The notes under the pieces are model-generated. The model was given only the letters and a program-made list of their open reading frames with translations, was not told where the DNA came from and searched no databases. Below, in pieces: positions 2,634 through 58,730 of a stretch of DNA of 64,000 nt (positions are counted from its first letter, which is position 1; each line of letters starts with the position of its first letter). The translations under genes and the position numbers were made by a program. This DNA comes from Candidatus Methylomirabilia bacterium. Lineage in GTDB: Bacteria; Methylomirabilota; Methylomirabilia; Rokubacteriales; CSP1-6. The DNA lies in contig JBGQLG010000003.1 in NCBI GenBank assembly GCA_041499965.1, positions 15,896 to 79,895 on the forward strand, written 5' to 3'.

Positions 2634-4253
2634 TCATCCGAGCTCCGGCTCGCTCCCCGTCTCTCTCCTGGCCTCGGGCAGCTGGACCATCGTGGCCTCG
2701 GTCAAGAGGAGCAGGCTGGCCACCGACACTGCGTTCTCGAGCGCCACGCGAACGACCTTCGTCGGATCGATGATGCCGGCCTCGACGAGGTCCACCCACT
2801 GCTTGCGGCCGGCGTCGAACCCGAGCGCGCCGGTGCCCTCGCGCATGCGGGCAACGATGACGCCGCCGTCGACGGCGGAGTTCTCGGCGATCTGGCGGGT
2901 CGGCGCTTCCAGGGCACGCCGGAGGATCTGCAGGCCCGTCCGCTCGTCGCCCTCGGTCTTCGCCTCTTCGCGCTCGACCGCCTCGATGGCGCGTAGCAAC
3001 GCCAGCCCGCCGCCTGGCACGATCCCCTCGGCCACGGCCGCCTTGGTGGCGTTGATCGCGTCCTCGAGCGCCTCCTTGCGGCTCTTCATCTCGGTCTCCG
3101 ACGGGGCGCCGACCCGGATGACGGCGACGCCGCCCGACAGCTTGGCCAGCCGCTCCTCGAGCTTCTCCCGGTCGTAGTCACTGGTCGTCTTCGTGATCTG
3201 CTGGCGGATCTGCTGCTTGCGCCCCTCGATGGCGGCCTTGCTGCCGTGGCCGCTGATGATGGTCGTGTTGTCTTTGTCCACCACCACGCGGCCGGCCCGC
3301 CCGAGCTGGCTGGCCTGGACGTTCTCGAGCTTGGTCCCGGTCTCCTCGCTCAGCACCTCGCCGCCGACCAGCACCGCGATGTCGGCCAGCATCTCCTTGC
3401 GGCGGTCGCCGAAGCCGGGCGCCTTCACCGCGATGCAGCGCAGCGACCCGCGGAGCTTGTTGACGACCAGCGTGGCCAGCGCCTCACCCTCGACGTCCTC
3501 GGCGATGATCACCAGGGCCTCGCCCGCCCGCGCGATCTGCTCCAGCAGCGGCAGGAGGTCCTTCATGATCGTCAGCTTGCGGTCGGTGACCAGCACCCGG
3601 GCATTCTCGAGGACGGCTTCCATCTTCTCCGGGTCGGTGACGAAGTAGGGGGAGAGGTAGCCGCGGTCGAACTGCAGACCCTCCACCACCTCGAGCTGGG
3701 TCTCCGTCGTCTTCGACTCCTCCAGCGTGATGACACCCTCGTCGCCGACCTTCTCCATGGCGTCGGCGATCAGCTCACCGATAGCGGTGTCGTTGTGGGC
3801 CGAGATCGCCGCGACCTGCGCCTTCTCCAGCCGGCTCTTCACCGGACGCGACAGCTCGCGCAGTCGCTCGACGGCCACCCGCGTGCCGCGGTCGAGGCCC
3901 CGCTTGAGGTCGACGGCGCTCGCCCCGGCCACCACGTTCTTGACTCCCTCGGCGAAGATCGCCTGGGCCAGGATGGTCGCCGTCGAGGTGCCGTCGCCCA
4001 CGGCGTCGCCGGTCCGCTCGGCCGCCTGCCGGATCGTCTGCGCGCCGAGGTTCTCGGTCGGATCTTCGAGGTTCGTCTCCTTGGCGATGGTGACGCCGTC
4101 GTTGCACACGAGCGGCGCCCCGAACTTCCGCTCGATGAGCACGCACTTCGATCGGGGGCCGAGCGTCACCCGCACCGCATCGGCAACGGCGTTCACGCCA
4201 CGGAGAATTTTCTCTCTCGCCTGCGACCGGAACATGACCTGCGTGTGGCTCAT
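2634..4253 (-). CDS. groEL: Chaperonin GroEL (no adjacent groES)
   Basis: [56 protein letters not shown] 4253 with GGGAGG RBS; 539 aa. Confidence 0.97.
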
Positions 4254-4293
4254 CGTCGCCTCCCTCGGGACGTTTCGACCGAGCCAGTGAAGG

Positions 4294-4309
4294 TGCAGTG
4301 CGGATGCCA
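4294..4309 (-). promoter_or_regulatory. sigma54 promoter for groEL
   Basis: TGGCATCCGCACTGCA; AAT-N8-TT at 4325-4337; palindrome CGGGGC-N6-GCCTCG at 4361-4378. Confidence 0.8.
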
Positions 4310-4529
4310 CGCGCGAAGTCCAGGAATCCGCGAGCTTACTGTCGGGGGTTGCGCCGGCACCGGGGCGTTGGCGCCTCGCCTCGCGCTCCCGTGCCTCAGA
4401 CCGCCGAGATCGCGACAGCCAAGGCGAACGGGACGTCCGGGGGTGGAGCGGACGGCCCCGAGCCCAGAGCGCGGCTCGGGCCACGAGTCGACCGATCCGG
4501 TCAGTGTCGCGATGCCGTCGAGGACCTCG

Positions 4530-4808
4530 TCATCGCCCCGCCGGCGCGACCGGATCCCGCGGGACGCTCTTCCAGATCGCGCCGAGGACACGCCCGCTCA
4601 CGTAGCCCACGGTCGCGGTCACCACGACGAGCGCGACGGCCCGGGCAGGCGCGAAGGGCCCGACCTGGTAGGGCGGGGTGATGAAGTGCAGCCAGAAGAT
4701 GAAGTCGATCACCGGCTGCGCCCACTGCGCGAGCACCAGCAGCGACCACAGCAGATGCCAGCCGCCGACAAAGAGCGCCAGCACGATCCCGAGCTTGTGG
4801 GAACTCAT
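4530..4808 (-). CDS. Small membrane protein (92 aa)
   Basis: Two hydrophobic helices, [11 protein letters not shown]...[16 protein letters not shown]. Confidence 0.75.
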
Positions 4809-4943
4809 CCGTTTTCCTCCGGTCGCCAGCGGCTGCCCGACGCCCGCTCCACGGTGCTGCCCGTTGGCTGGCAGGCGGTCGCACGCGCGGGCGTGGGCTC
4901 GAGGAAGGGTAATCGCCGGCCCGGATCTTCGGCGACGATCGCG

Positions 4944-5240
4944 CTACGATCGCGTGAACCGCGGCGACCGGGCCACGACCAGCAGACACCCCTTGCGGCA
5001 CAGGGCGACGCCCGGCGTGCCGAGCACCGAGCAGCAGGTGACGTCGACGAACCGGCGCGTCCACTCGTCCCGCGCGAGCTCGGCGGTGGCCGGCTGCCGG
5101 ATCAGCGAACAGTGGACGCCGGTGGTCACGGGCTGCATGGCGCGCGGGAAGAGGCGTAGCACCCCCAGCACGAGCACGGTCGCGGTCGTGGAGACCACGA
5201 GGACGAGCAGTGCGCCTTCGAGCGTCGTCAGCGAGTACAT
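4944..5240 (-). CDS. Membrane-anchored Cys-rich small protein
   Basis: N-terminal TM then VHC...VDVTCCS...CRKGCL; follows the TraR/DksA gene in the operon. Confidence 0.7.
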   Translation of the reverse strand: MYSLTTLEGALLVLVVSTTATVLVLGVLRLFPRAMQPVTTGVHCSLIRQPATAELARDEWTRRFVDVTCCSVLGTPGVALCRKGCLLVVARSPRFTRS

Positions 5241-5259
5241 GGGCTTTCCCCCCGCGGCG

Positions 5260-57132: not shown

Positions 57133-57264
57133 GGCCGATCCCTCCCCCCCGTCGTGTCGGGTGTGCAGCTCACCGCCGGCGGCACCTTCGTTACGGCAGG
57201 GGCCTGAGGAGACGTTCCCTTCTAGGGGAACCTCCGATTTGCGAAGCGATGTCAGAACTGTGAC

Positions 57265-57280
57265 TGCAACGTGCGCGCCA
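57265..57280 (-). promoter_or_regulatory. sigma54 promoter for USP-glucan synthase
   Basis: TGGCGCGCACGTTGCA; TGGGGC-N6-GGGGCA a TGAGGC-N6-GCCGCC at 57333-57369. Confidence 0.77.
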
Positions 57281-57578
57281 GGACTTTCCCGTGCGTTTCG
57301 TGCCGAACCCGCGACATGGAAGCCCAGCGAAGTGGGGCGCCGGAGGGGCAATGAGGCGGAGACGCCGCCCCGTTCCCTGTCTTGACTGCGGCGTGGTCGC
57401 GAGGATCGGCCGGGCAGCCGCCATCGCGATGCGCTACGCGAGCTCCAGCAGCGCGAGGGCGGGTTTCCGTCGGCGCTCGAGCACCGGCACGTGGCATTGC
57501 TGCACCACCTGTCGCATCGATGTCCCACGCTCTCCCTCGGTTCCGGGCGCAAGTTGTGGGATTCGCTGGCGTGGGACT

Positions 57579-57594
57579 CGGCACCGTCGTTGCT
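57579..57594 (+). promoter_or_regulatory. sigma54 promoter for HPF-like gene
   Basis: CGGCACCGTCGTTGCT; AA-N8-ATT at 57551-57563; tandem sites at 57490-57527; ATG 57607 is 14 nt after the -12 C. Confidence 0.8.
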
Positions 57595-57606
57595 GTCTCG
57601 TTGGGC

Positions 57607-57990
57607 ATGACGAAACCGGCCTCTCGCCCGCGTTCCTCTTCGGTGCCCACGATCGAGATCGTAGGCCTCGCCATCGCACCGACGTTCAGGGCCCGTATCG
57701 CTCGGCAGATCCGGCGCGCGCTCGTCGGCGTCCAGACGAGCCCGGTCCACGTCCGCGTCAGCTTCGCGGACGTCAATGGCCCGAAAGGCGGTCTCGACGC
57801 GCGGTGCGCCATCGACGTGACGATTCCGCGGACGGCGCCGCTCCACGTCGAGGAGACCGCCGCGAGAGACGTCACCGCCTTCGACCTGAGCGCGGCGGCG
57901 ATTTCGCGACAGATTGCGCGGCAACTCGAGCGCAGGCAGAAGAGCGGGCGGTATCCGAAGAAGTACTACGCGGCCCAACGCTTGCCGTAG
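57607..57990 (+). CDS. HPF/RaiA-like ribosome-associated protein
   Basis: VRVSFADVNGPKGGLDARCAIDVTIP, AFDLSAAAISRQI, basic tail. Confidence 0.8.
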   Translation: MTKPASRPRSSSVPTIEIVGLAIAPTFRARIARQIRRALVGVQTSPVHVRVSFADVNGPKGGLDARCAIDVTIPRTAPLHVEETAARDVTAFDLSAAAISRQIARQLERRQKSGRYPKKYYAAQRLP

Positions 57991-58154
57991 CGCGTCCCGG
58001 CGCCGCCGGCCAGCGTGTTGGTAGCGTCAGGGGGAGCGCTGTCACCGTCGTCACCGGCGCCGTCTGATCGGCATTCCACCCTGCCGTTGGTGCGGTGCGT
58101 GAGCGCGTGAAGCCGACGTGAAGCCTGGGGGGTCGAGACGCGGGAGGGGTTGTC

Positions 58155-58730
58155 GTGCTGGTCCAGGAACTGACGAGGCAGGCGAGTCTGGAGCTGCTGG
58201 CTCGTGCACACATCGGTAGATTGGCGTGCGCCCGAGGGACCCAGCCGTACATGGTGCCATTCTATTTCGTCTATGAGAATGATTGCCTGTATAGCTTTTC
58301 CGCGGTCGGACAAAAGATCGACTGGATGCGAGCCAACCCGCTGGTCTGCGTCGAAGCGGACGAGGTGGTGAGCCCGCAGCAATGGATGAGCGTCATTGTC
58401 TTCGGTCGCTACGAAGAGATACTCGACACCCCCGAATACCCGGGCGCGCGCGCACGCGCTCACGCCCTGCTGAAACGGCACGCGGCGTGGTGGGAGCCTG
58501 CGTACGTGAAGACCATCGTCCACGGCGCAGAGCGCCCGCCGGTGCCGGTCTTCTACCGCATTTACGCCCGCCAGATTACCGGCCGCCGGGCCATCCCTGA
58601 TCAGCCGGTGTCGCCGCCAGACCCCAGGCTGTCGGTGACCGAGTCGGGCGAAGGCGGTTGGCTGCACAACCTTCTGCGGCAGATCCTGGGTATACGCAAG
58701 CACTCCCGCGCCAAGCAGCGAGAGCGATAG
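58155..58730 (+). CDS. Pyridoxamine 5'-phosphate oxidase-like flavin-binding protein
   Basis: IGRLAC, QPYMVP, GQKIDWMRANPLVCVE, WMSVIVFGRYEE, ITGRR. Confidence 0.92.
   Translation: MLVQELTRQASLELLARAHIGRLACARGTQPYMVPFYFVYENDCLYSFSAVGQKIDWMRANPLVCVEADEVVSPQQWMSVIVFGRYEEILDTPEYPGARARAHALLKRHAAWWEPAYVKTIVHGAERPPVPVFYRIYARQITGRRAIPDQPVSPPDPRLSVTESGEGGWLHNLLRQILGIRKHSRAKQRER

Follow-up and report, generated by a model that had tools for sequence, protein, structure and literature searches.

In Mycobacterium tuberculosis, heme-based sensor kinases (DosS/DosT) act with a response regulator, DosR, that switches on approximately 50 genes. The gene blocks and functions of this regulon are taken here from the accessible part of PMC5309233; in the corresponding parts of two further sources, Rv0079 is described as an HPF/RaiA protein and Rv2629 as a Balon homolog (PMC10901736), and Rv0080 is annotated as PNPOx (PMC10703047). 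The lxa locus of Burkholderia cenocepacia is a low-oxygen island of ~50 genes with which a diderm survives anoxia (Sass et al. 2013, PMC3721108). As far as the sections of that paper at hand list its content, lxa holds six universal stress proteins (USPs), a small heat-shock protein, "phospholipid-binding" proteins, a class II ribonucleotide reductase (RNR), PfkB/ribokinase, a "lysine decarboxylase", acetate kinase, cytochrome c, a sulfate transporter, ABC and outer-membrane transport, a Zn protease and a cation ATPase; a common promoter motif lies at 17 intergenic points, and the overlap with DosR was pointed out by its authors (PMC3721108). In Myxococcus xanthus, the NmpRSTU system leads from a heme-dependent kinase to an NtrC-like regulator and on to hypoxia-induced sigma-54 promoters with paired inverted repeats, the targets named in the available text being a CBS protein, a USP, a P-type ATPase with a high-affinity cbb3 oxidase, and the system's own genes (McAllister et al. 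2025, PMC11841059). Here we describe a stretch of 64,000 nucleotides from a Candidatus Methylomirabilia bacterium (contig C3, positions 15896-79895; "the window" below always means this whole stretch), in which stress and dormancy genes are not merely clustered: judged from their upstream regions, they have a common sigma-54-type promoter design. We propose, with a rough probability of 0.55 for the explanation as a whole, that the window is the core of a ~100-140 kb sigma-54 low-oxygen survival island run by a heme-type kinase and an NtrC-type regulator.

The window makes up 1.1% of a 5.8-Mb, 329-contig Methylomirabilota/Rokubacteria assembly with an estimated completeness of ~97%. Genes were called with a codon-usage model trained on twelve long open reading frames (ORFs), and the calls were then scanned against Pfam. 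Contigs of this genome are labelled with C-numbers, G001 is the genome of a near-complete relative with a 1.84-Mb contig, and L-numbers are loci extracted from genomes. An enrichment of stress families is apparent from domain counts alone, the window holding 7 of the genome's 28 USP matches, 10 of 26 CBS, 4 of 11 BON and 1 of 2 HSP20 matches, a clustering far beyond chance. By tblastn, the archease, baeRF, PfkB, HPF-like and PNPOx-like genes of the window are the sole copies in the genome, and several housekeeping genes have extra paralogs (genome copies: GroEL 3, LigA 2, PolX 2, FtsH 3, RNR 2).

Sigma-54 promoters follow the consensus TGGCAC-N5-TTGCW, and the element tested was a -24 GG and a -12 GC at fixed spacing. 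Allowing at most one mismatch, TGGCAC-N5-TTGC was matched 11 times in the window versus 2.74 expected. The locally preferred word TGGCA-N7-TGCA was matched 10 times versus 0.21 expected, a number that none of 100 shuffles reached; nine of the ten exact sites are intergenic and correctly oriented with a start codon 13-105 nt downstream, and the tenth lies inside polX. Genome-wide, the same word occurs 34 times in 5.8 Mb, with 10 of these matches inside 34 kb of window sequence. When weaker sites are included, intergenic and correctly oriented sigma-54-type elements precede at least 16 transcription units in the window (P1 to P16, Table 1), and 5 more units on flanking contigs have such an element. 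RpoN itself is encoded on C2 (PF04552, 206 bits), and the genome has 26 strong bacterial enhancer-binding protein (bEBP) domains (PF00158 matches above 200 bits), none of them on C3.

About half of the island promoters also carry an upstream palindrome, GCCCCA-N1-3-TGGGGC, usually 56-80 nt upstream of the -24 element and 132 nt upstream at one. Its core, CCCCA-N1-3-TGGGG, is present 11 times genome-wide, with 4 of these matches inside the window, and GCCCCA-NN-TGGGGC with at most one mismatch is found 4 times in the window versus 0.61 expected. Among all sigma-54 sites of at least 14 bits, a palindrome of at least 10/12 accompanies 10 of 21 island sites versus 3 of 75 elsewhere, and one of at least 11/12 accompanies 7 of 21 versus 0 of 75. 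Between the palindrome and the -24 element, directly upstream of the latter, most of the set (18 island promoters) share a second element, AA-N6-GA(A/T)TT, an A/T-rich patch in a 71% GC genome for which no such consensus appears in 34 other sigma-54 sites. We presume that this element fits the IHF consensus in part; five HU/IHF-family genes are present in the genome, and the element may function as an IHF-type bend site. Since the palindrome and AA-N6-GAWTT are specific to the island promoters, they mark these promoters as one set. A very loose sigma-54 core, [TCG]GGC[AG]-N7-[TC]GC[ATG], was also tried and gave 11,487 sites, at which the upstream palindrome scored no better than a downstream control except at 12/12 (6 versus 0); being too loose to use, it was replaced by a weight matrix (PWM).

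The matrix was trained on the window sites and applied to 37.8 kb of flanking island DNA that had not been used in training (the rest of C3, C262, C197 and C312). Five sites of at least 16 bits were found there, or 8.5 per 64 kb, versus 0.38 per 64 kb in the remaining genome. Alignment to the 1.84-Mb contig of G001 places the contigs in the order C7-C131-C222-C262-C197-C3-C312-C167, and G001 itself holds an island with the same content in a different gene order, 12 of its 38 exact sigma-54 words lying within positions 524-672 kb of its contig C1. The first 15.9 kb of C3, just left of the window, carry six more USP genes, another CBS pair, a solo REC protein, acetate kinase, ADP-forming acetyl-CoA synthetase and cytochrome c, as well as a terminal oxidase, next to the kinase discussed below and behind an island-type promoter. 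This oxidase is of the ba3 type (E 7e-147 to 1EHK; 494 bits to Thermus ba3 versus at most 51 bits to A-type oxidases). Across 72 RtcB loci in other phyla, archease is adjacent in 64, whereas a CBS gene is present in no more than 2 and neither USP nor Hsp20 genes were found; the island is thus lineage-specific.

These results bear directly on whether there is one regulon at all. The genes could instead be loosely clustered, with sigma-54-like words that serve unrelated activators or are no promoters, and several observations fit such a reading: the many strong bEBP domains of the genome and the lack of a good palindrome at about half of the island promoters. Four sites are weak (P4, P10, P12 and P16), and several island genes gave no sigma-54 site (FtsH-HlyD, MacB, MFS, the sulfate symporter and LonB). 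The stretch with the Na+/sulfate symporter and the AIR-synthase-related protein (20160-22633) gave no sigma-54 site, and the FtsH/HlyD/MacB/MFS region gave no convincing one, only a match of PWM 14.4 at 43557-43572, which leaves its membership in the regulon open. Furthermore, in G001 the sigma-54 word is found 38 times genome-wide versus 58 for a reversed-word control; because this total is not above the control, only the clustering and placement of the words carry weight. It is precisely on placement that the idea of unrelated words fares badly, given the intergenic, correctly oriented position of nine of the ten exact sites, the absence of both AA-N6-GAWTT and the palindrome from other sigma-54 sites, and the recurrence of the same promoter type on flanking contigs beside paralogs of island genes, and in relatives. 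We therefore regard loose clustering as improbable, and a single shared sigma-54 promoter class very probably drives the island, as its promoter sequences suggest. To this extent the proposal of an earlier note on this DNA, made from the sequence alone, that a hypoxia and dormancy toolkit had been rewired to sigma-54 is supported by the common promoters, whereas its low-oxygen part is putative.

The same note had recommended a search near the island for an NtrC-type regulator and a heme sensor kinase, and candidates for both were located, the first on C262, which synteny with G001 places nearby. Outside C3 there are 24 exact sigma-54 words, of which three share the upstream design and precede paralogs of island genes, and two of those three flank a C262 gene for a REC-AAA+-HTH_8 response regulator. 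The protein matches PF00072, PF00158 (239 bits) and PF02954; its GAFTGA motif spans residues 219-224, and its Walker A motif reads GESGTGK. One of the two promoters precedes genes for a USP and an HdeD-like DUF308 protein, and downstream of the second lie genes for a protein paralogous to the 135-aa secreted protein of the window, for a USP and for a formate/nitrite transporter. Regulators of the NtrC family bind inverted repeats some 80-150 bp upstream of the promoters that they activate. Given this co-location, the C262 regulator is a candidate for the protein that acts at the palindrome. Its ortholog in G001 is 90% identical (next-best G001 match 49%), and ortholog-level matches (E at most 1e-149, with paralogs clearly apart at E of at least 1e-130) were obtained in 64 of 121 genomes of the phylum, a tally that includes four unpublished genomes. 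At 19 of 29 loci with a regulator ortholog there is a sigma-54 site of at least 15 bits, mostly, where inspected, between the regulator and USP genes with CCCCA boxes upstream. Class-level relatives keep a kinase-regulator operon, and in one of them USP, CBS and Hsp20 genes follow.

The candidate kinase (C3:5370-6617) is a soluble PAS-HisKA-HATPase protein encoded 10 kb left of the window. Its PAS domain, which is predicted to bind heme, resembles FixL heme domains (1D06, E 5.5e-17; 1DP6, E 2e-16) and that of E. coli DosP (E ~1e-11). In both FixL alignments its proximal His is paired with that of FixL, and this residue is kept in all seven heme-PAS orthologs aligned. In 21 of 29 relatives the regulator ortholog has as its neighbour a kinase with a 53-64% identical core, co-directional and upstream in 19 and divergent in 2; for each of the 16 neighbour kinases tested, the best match in this genome was the C3 kinase (222-380 bits versus 145-279 for the second-best). 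We infer the kinase-regulator pairing in this genome from this orthology and from island membership rather than from adjacency, and we consider the identification of both proteins reasonably likely. Five of the 21 adjacent kinases have the heme-PAS signature, and a sixth heme-PAS kinase stands divergently, 1.1 kb away, at the edge of L118. The same kinase core thus occurs with either heme-PAS or PAS_4, so the sensor domain was swapped during evolution. Two smaller observations concern these kinases and their surroundings. The PAS_4-type kinases (16 loci, within L100-L127) have an unrelated N-terminal region of ~140 aa in addition to PAS_4. Directly after the heme-PAS kinase, a DUF2267 protein (L084 4840-5202, -) is encoded behind its own sigma-54 site, and a stand-alone receiver (C3/L084 10614-10988, -) lies in a string of acetate-kinase, CBS and USP genes and could be a second phosphoacceptor for the kinase.

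Put together, a soluble histidine kinase with a FixL-type heme-PAS domain would sense falling O2, or a related redox or gas signal, and phosphorylate an NtrC-family enhancer-binding protein (REC, AAA+ with GAFTGA, HTH_8). Bound to the palindromes and acting via a DNA bend, this regulator would turn on sigma-54 RNA polymerase jointly at every island promoter, those next to the regulator and kinase genes among them. The cell would thereby come to rely on high-affinity respiration and on ATP made at the substrate level, while its ribosomes hibernate and its macromolecules are repaired. The survival kit would comprise chaperones and proteases (Hsp20, a spare GroEL, HtrA, FtsH), nucleotide sensing by CBS and USP proteins, hibernation factors (the Balon-like baeRF protein and the short HPF-like protein), repair of RNA (archease-RtcB), protein (PCMT) and DNA (PolX-LigA), metabolism (the O2-independent class II RNR, PfkB, phosphoenolpyruvate (PEP) synthase) and the envelope (BON/OsmY, Pal). 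Just outside the window, the kit would extend to the ba3-type oxidase, acetate kinase, ADP-forming acetyl-CoA synthetase and a formate/nitrite transporter.

The signal is the least secure part of this scheme, and we judge the odds that it is low O2 to be about even. Several points weigh against the scheme as set out. A Leu occupies the position aligned to the FixL distal Arg, which we take to be the residue for O2 signalling, R220 of BjFixL; for this reason the cue might be NO, CO or redox state, or there might be no ligand at all. Nor do the kinase and regulator genes adjoin each other in this genome: they sit on different contigs, and in G001 they are ~135 kb apart. The other 16 of the 21 adjacent kinases have a PAS_4 sensor on the same kinase core, so the input signal is not uniform across the family. 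GroEL, Hsp20, HtrA, DksA and FtsH would equally fit a heat or proteotoxic-stress regulon. Finally, induction of the island at low O2 is inferred, and the contigs from RNA libraries described below carry no information on start, level or induction. The same island and sigma-54 regulon might thus answer to a trigger other than oxygen, as a growth-arrest, proteotoxic, osmotic or desiccation programme, with the PAS kinase reading redox or energy state, NO, CO or another ligand, or with a different kinase feeding the regulator. Such a trigger would suit the replaced distal Arg, the non-heme PAS_4 partner in most relatives and the many classic heat and envelope stress members (to those just named may be added BON/OsmY, Pal and the cyclic glucan synthase), and the part of PMC10901736 that deals with Balon-type genes places them in operons for various stresses (heat, cold, osmotic, acid). 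It accounts less well for a PAS domain whose best matches are heme O2 sensors with the proximal His kept, or for the ba3 oxidase, class II RNR, acetate kinase and formate/nitrite transporter, which are low-O2 functions of the DosR, lxa and NmpR regulons. We consider a non-oxygen trigger unlikely, if a serious competitor, and keep the low-oxygen survival island as the preferred explanation.

The earlier note had described the gene set as a mirror of the DosR regulon, and at the level of families much of this description holds. We take Rv2626c to be a CBS protein and Rv2630 to be archease, and most of the USP labels of DosR members are likewise assumed. Ten families are shared with DosR, as far as the available account of that regulon goes: USP, Hsp20, CBS, PfkB, class II RNR, baeRF, archease, RtcB, HPF-like and PNPOx-like. 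The window's Hsp20, its four USP genes, its five stand-alone CBS-pair proteins and the position of archease directly before RtcB were all confirmed by Pfam, PfkB and the class II RNR (TIGR02504, NrdJ_Z, 652 bits versus a cut-off of 400) also by NCBIfam, and the HPF-like and PNPOx-like genes are adjacent as the note had said. Two of its assignments stand in part. The baeRF protein belongs to baeRF_family10 (90 bits versus a cut-off of 27) and its best PDB match is Balon (MSMEG_1130; E 1.9e-5 over residues 102-374), but it falls far below the NCBIfam equivalogs (Rv2629-family model, 33.3 bits versus a cut-off of 320; MSMEG_1130 model, 55.6 bits versus 480) and is probably only a distant Balon relative. 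The HPF-like ORF is marginal, PF02482 reaching 22.6 bits, under the gathering score of 23.7, with no NCBIfam match; PF02482 is present, however, in 28 of its 30 ESM-Atlas neighbours (top score 0.94). One assignment did not survive, the supposed remnant of a P-type ATPase (CtpF): neither a DKTGT nor a GDGxND motif turned up in any of the six frames, the genome's 4 PF00122 matches all lie outside the window, and a tblastn search of the window with the four P-type ATPases of this genome gave a best E of 0.67. The G001 island does hold two P-type ATPases (C1:552703-554607 and 662342-664555; L090, L096), 38% and 60% identical to the C53 and C58 copies, with no window counterpart. The diderm host proposed in the note agrees with the lipobox-bearing Pal lipoprotein and with the HlyD-MacB genes.

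The DosS/T-DosR design is thus analogous, and would be built here from different regulatory parts. The sensor domains of DosS and DosT are GAF domains, unlike the FixL-like PAS of the candidate kinase, and the regulator here would be an NtrC-type bEBP on sigma-54 promoters, whereas DosR is of the NarL type on housekeeping-sigma promoters. Comparison was by NCBIfam and PDB, not with the Rv proteins directly, and showed no orthology-level similarity in the NCBIfam models; the likeness is at the Pfam family level. Among the PDB matches listed for the CBS protein (E up to 1e-10) and the PNPOx-like protein (E up to 0.001) there is no mycobacterial chain, and the best relatives are archaeal or rhizobial. 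General Pfam scans of the window ORFs gave no match to the nitroreductase, Tgs1, NarK2/NarX or ferredoxin families. Conversely, PolX-LigA, PCMT, archaeal-type S-adenosylmethionine (SAM) synthetase, GroEL, HtrA, BON, Pal and the ba3 oxidase occur here and are unnamed in the accessible part of the DosR source. It could still be asked whether a DosR-regulon island was acquired laterally from Actinobacteria and its promoters later replaced, as the ten shared families, among them the rarer baeRF, archease-RtcB, adjacent HPF and PNPOx, class II RNR and PfkB, might suggest. We consider this very improbable. The baeRF scores and the non-mycobacterial PDB relatives given above both argue against it, GC is flat across the window at 70-72%, and the regulator and kinase core are conserved across the class. 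In addition, the window RtcB is 78-85% identical to that of other Methylomirabilota/Rokubacteria metagenome-assembled genomes (MAGs) and 95% to the closest Candidatus Rokubacteria MAG, and only 61-66% identical outside the phylum, where the nearest relatives are Methanoperedens, Scalindua and Nitrospira (62-66%).

The lxa locus and the NmpR regulon are closer precedents than DosR. We take the "phospholipid-binding" proteins of lxa to be of the BON type and its "lysine decarboxylase" to be of the LOG type. As far as its published list extends, lxa has almost the same families as this island, with an Anr/FNR-like motif, TGA-N6-TCA, in place of sigma-54 and an NtrC-type regulator. It also has polyhydroxyalkanoate synthesis and alcohol dehydrogenases, while Balon-like and HPF-like proteins, RtcB-archease, PCMT and PolX-LigA, present here, are names that do not appear in the available portion of its Table 4. 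NmpR, to judge from the sections describing it, has the same layout of heme kinase, NtrC-like regulator and sigma-54 promoters, with CBS and USP targets and its own genes. There, NmpU is a protoglobin in a multi-step phosphorelay, whereas here the candidate is a FixL-like PAS kinase in what relatives keep as a simple kinase-regulator operon. The NmpR site GCGCA-N5-TGCGC has no match in the window (the site here is GCCCCA-N2-TGGGGC), the oxidase is ba3 rather than cbb3, and the 7 promoters and 23 genes of NmpR compare with at least 21 promoters here, with hibernation and repair modules. The RtcR-sigma-54-rtcBA system offers a narrower parallel: in E. coli and other enterobacteria, rtcBA lies behind a sigma-54 promoter with the activator RtcR, which has a CARF input, and RtcB is likewise behind a sigma-54 promoter here, although the candidate activator has a REC input. 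Rhizobial FixL-FixJ shares the homologous heme PAS with its proximal His and the control of a high-affinity oxidase (the FixLJ-cbb3 link is cited in the available text of PMC11841059), and it differs in that the partner here is NtrC-type rather than FixJ/NarL-type, the distal Arg is replaced by Leu, and the targets are a dormancy kit. Balon-type genes often neighbour Hsp20, RaiA/HPF, RtcB, OsmY and HdeD (PMC10901736) and baeRF genes neighbour HPF (PMC6514570), according to the passages at hand; the families of the former list are all found in this island, here as separate units of one large regulon.

The system is therefore best seen as a new regulatory version of known low-oxygen survival kits, and its mechanism is not categorically new. 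Our literature search found no publication describing this Rokubacteria sigma-54 regulon, which is weak evidence for its being undescribed. Tentatively, the conservation of the regulator in the genomes sampled allows a wider proposal, that one NtrC-type regulator runs a sigma-54 "hypoxic hibernation" super-regulon across much of Methylomirabilota. If so, the super-regulon would span in this genome at least 21 promoters, ~100-140 kb and 20 of its 28 matches to the USP domain, coupling high-affinity respiration and substrate-level ATP production to ribosome hibernation and the repair of RNA, protein and DNA. It would add to DosR (NarL-type) and lxa (FNR-type) a third control circuit, of independent origin, for the survival kit, and the swap between heme-PAS and PAS_4 on a conserved core would mean that the cue for entering the same dormancy programme may differ between lineages. 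As the kit (USP, CBS, Hsp20, class II RNR, PfkB, Balon/HPF, RtcB) would then be wired to three unrelated regulator types in three phyla, we would argue that the kit, and not the regulator, is the conserved unit of low-oxygen persistence. Rokubacteria/Methylomirabilota are widespread in soil and sediment and have almost no cultured members; a regulon defined from sequence, with a named candidate sensor, regulator, DNA site and ~50 target genes, would provide testable handles on dormancy physiology and cultivation.

The DNA of positions 5300-15200 was found in 19 sediment-metagenome DNA runs (47-99% of sampled words), one of which may be the source of the assembly. Contigs from four RNA libraries in three studies, compared over 2500-22400, cover groEL, the dksA region and the CBS-hsp20 genes. 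We would like to note that these are contigs only, from which start, strand and level cannot be read, and that RNA libraries can contain DNA; they are taken solely as presence in RNA libraries. One contig, 7020-8408 (1,389 nt, 18 mismatches), extends 25 nt beyond the hsp20 start codon on its upstream side and stops ~17 nt before the start site predicted for transcription, a weak hint at most.

Table 1. Predicted features of the window (positions in window coordinates; sites are sigma-54-type unless stated otherwise; distances are to the start of the gene named).
Feature	Position	Strand	Remarks
P1, -24/-12 site TGGCATCCGCACTGCA	4294-4309	-	40 nt upstream of groEL paralog; PWM 20.8
P2, site	5688-5703	-	89 nt upstream of DksA/TraR zinc-finger gene
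P3, site TGGCAGTCGCCTTGCA	8437-8452	-	53 nt upstream of hsp20; just downstream is the end of RNA contig 7020-8408
P3 palindrome, putative activator site GCCCCGCGCTGGGGC	8516-8530	-	upstream of P3
P4, weaker sigma-54-like site CGGCACCCGACTTGCC	8891-8906	+	92 nt upstream of pfkB; PWM 11.1
P5, site	14147-14162	-	45 nt upstream of htrA
Perfect palindrome GCCCCAGGTGGGGC	14228-14241	.	common to divergent P5 and P6, 77-79 nt from each
P6, site TGGCAGTGAGGTTGCA	14305-14320	+	13 nt upstream of archease start
P7, site TGGCATTCGAGTTGCG	19953-19968	-	14 nt upstream of IMPase-family gene; half palindrome 20011-20024
P8 palindrome GCCCCATGTGGGGT	22741-22754
P8, site	22873-22888	+	48 nt upstream of baeRF/Balon-like gene
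P9 perfect palindrome GCCCCATCTGGGGC	24757-24770
P9, site	24837-24852	+	upstream of BON-USP-RNR unit
P10, sigma-54-like site TGGCGGGTCGCTTGCA	28072-28087	-	55 nt upstream of CBS-pair gene 27597-28016; palindrome 28162-28175
P11, sigma-54-like site CGGCATCGCTGATGCA	30534-30549	-	upstream of 56-aa ORF and AMP-binding acyl-CoA synthetase-like gene
P12, weak sigma-54-like site GGGCACTACTCCTGCA	34747-34762	-	18 nt upstream of polX; near-palindrome 34859-34871; PWM 10.8
P13 palindrome GCCTCACGTGAGGC	35072-35085
P13, site	35151-35166	+	upstream of triple-BON/USP unit
P14, site TGGCAGTGTCATTGCA	38047-38062	+	best PWM score, 24.9; 55 nt upstream of pal; near-palindrome 37991-38003
P15, sigma-54-like site TGGCGCGCACGTTGCA	57265-57280	-	132 nt upstream of tandem-USP gene
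P16, weaker sigma-54-like site CGGCACCGTCGTTGCT	57579-57594	+	48 nt upstream of HPF-like gene; PWM 15.0
Cpn60/GroEL	2634-4253	-	Pfam PF00118; one of three genome copies; paralogs on C9 and C183, 59% identity
DksA/TraR zinc-finger protein 5260-5598, then small ORFs 4944-5240 and 4530-4808	4530-5598	-	Pfam PF01258; small ORFs without Pfam match
hsp20 7949-8383; CBS-pair genes 7393-7866, 6807-7373, 6247-6792; small basic ORF 5796-6035	5796-8383	-	Pfam; single same-strand string
PfkB-family hexose/1-phosphofructokinase	8999-9919	+	Pfam PF00294; NCBIfam TIGR03168 280 bits, cut-off 216
HtrA/DegP protease 12809-14101, PEP synthase 10329-12812, CBS pair 9883-10332	9883-14101	-	Pfam; stops/starts overlap
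Archease 14334-14762, RtcB RNA ligase 14773-16218, 67-aa Cys-rich ORF 16241-16444	14334-16444	+	Pfam PF01951, PF01139
IMPase-family phosphatase 19108-19938, APS-kinase-like/PCMT protein-repair methyltransferase fusion 17750-19111, archaeal-type SAM synthetase 16548-17753	16548-19938	-	Pfam PF00459, PF01583 + PF01135, PF01941
Na+/sulfate symporter (+), AIR-synthase-related protein (-)	20160-22633	.	Pfam
baeRF_family10 protein (Balon-like, putative ribosome hibernation factor) 22937-24067, CarS-like membrane protein 24103-24570	22937-24570	+	Pfam
BON 24958-25146, USP 25143-25742, B12-dependent class II RNR 25796-27553	24958-27553	+	Pfam
Stand-alone CBS-pair gene	27597-28016	-	Pfam
56-aa ORF 30278-30448, AMP-binding acyl-CoA synthetase-like gene 28257-30104	28257-30448	-	Pfam
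PolX (Pol-beta-like + PHP) 33007-34728, NAD-dependent DNA ligase LigA paralog 31007-33010, GYD protein 30686-30979	30686-34728	-	Pfam
Triple-BON (OsmY-like) 35253-35927, USP genes 36221-36658 and 36667-37260	35253-37260	+	Pfam
Pal-type OmpA lipoprotein 38118-38711 (lipobox), secreted 135-aa unknown 38728-39135, DUF4015 39158-40432	38118-40432	+	Pfam
FtsH paralog (40233-42119) and HlyD adaptor (-), MacB ATPase and permease, MFS (+)	40233-47001	.	Pfam; HlyD-MacB 42116-45709
Tandem USP 56095-57132, then same-strand cyclic beta-1,2-glucan synthase-like gene 47633-56089 (2,784-2,818 aa)	47633-57132	-	Pfam
Short HPF/RaiA-like ORF 57643-57990, PNPOx-like Pyridox_ox_2 58155-58730, adjacent	57643-58730	+	Pfam PF12900 64 bits for PNPOx-like
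LonB-like protease	62186-63877		Pfam

Some of the genes in Table 1 merit further comment. The hsp20-CBS gene order is kept in locus L002. The CBS-pair protein 7393-7866 matches the PDB chains 9znf_5, 9zni_6 and 9znf_4, which are named only "CBS domain-containing protein" and apparently belong to large complexes. An archaeal hibernation factor consists of an HPF domain fused to a CBS module (PMC13324472, in the part available), and by analogy the stand-alone CBS proteins of the island might act on ribosomes likewise. The archaeal-type SAM synthetase (PF01941, 413 bits) is encoded in a bacterium that has no second copy in the genome by tblastn. The tandem USP gene and the cyclic beta-1,2-glucan synthase-like gene after it may be co-transcribed; the latter encodes a giant protein (GH94 + GT2-like, ~2,800 aa) that is 90% conserved in G001 and has a 46% paralog on C58.

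The secreted protein of ~130 aa that follows pal (38728-39135, +) has no Pfam family and is a recurrent unknown member of the regulon: a 57% paralog heads the USP-formate/nitrite transporter operon on C262 (L082 927-1316, +), and a 40% homolog adjoins hsp20 in another MAG (L003 2559-2864). The DUF4015 ORF next to it converges with the FtsH ORF, with a 3' overlap of 200 nt, and its Pfam match stops at residue 344 of 424, so the tail may reflect a mis-called stop or a frameshift. After the MFS gene, a 61-aa ORF (46998-47183, -) resembles a fragment of an ABC-transporter ATPase (Walker-B-like LFLDEPTVGLD) and is probably a gene remnant. Beside the LonB-like gene, a 293-aa protein (61308-62189, -) corresponds to the N-terminal HHH_8/HHH_5 part of PolX alone, with 31% identity to the N-terminus of the island PolX and 39% to the C123 copy; its pairing with LonB is kept in G001.

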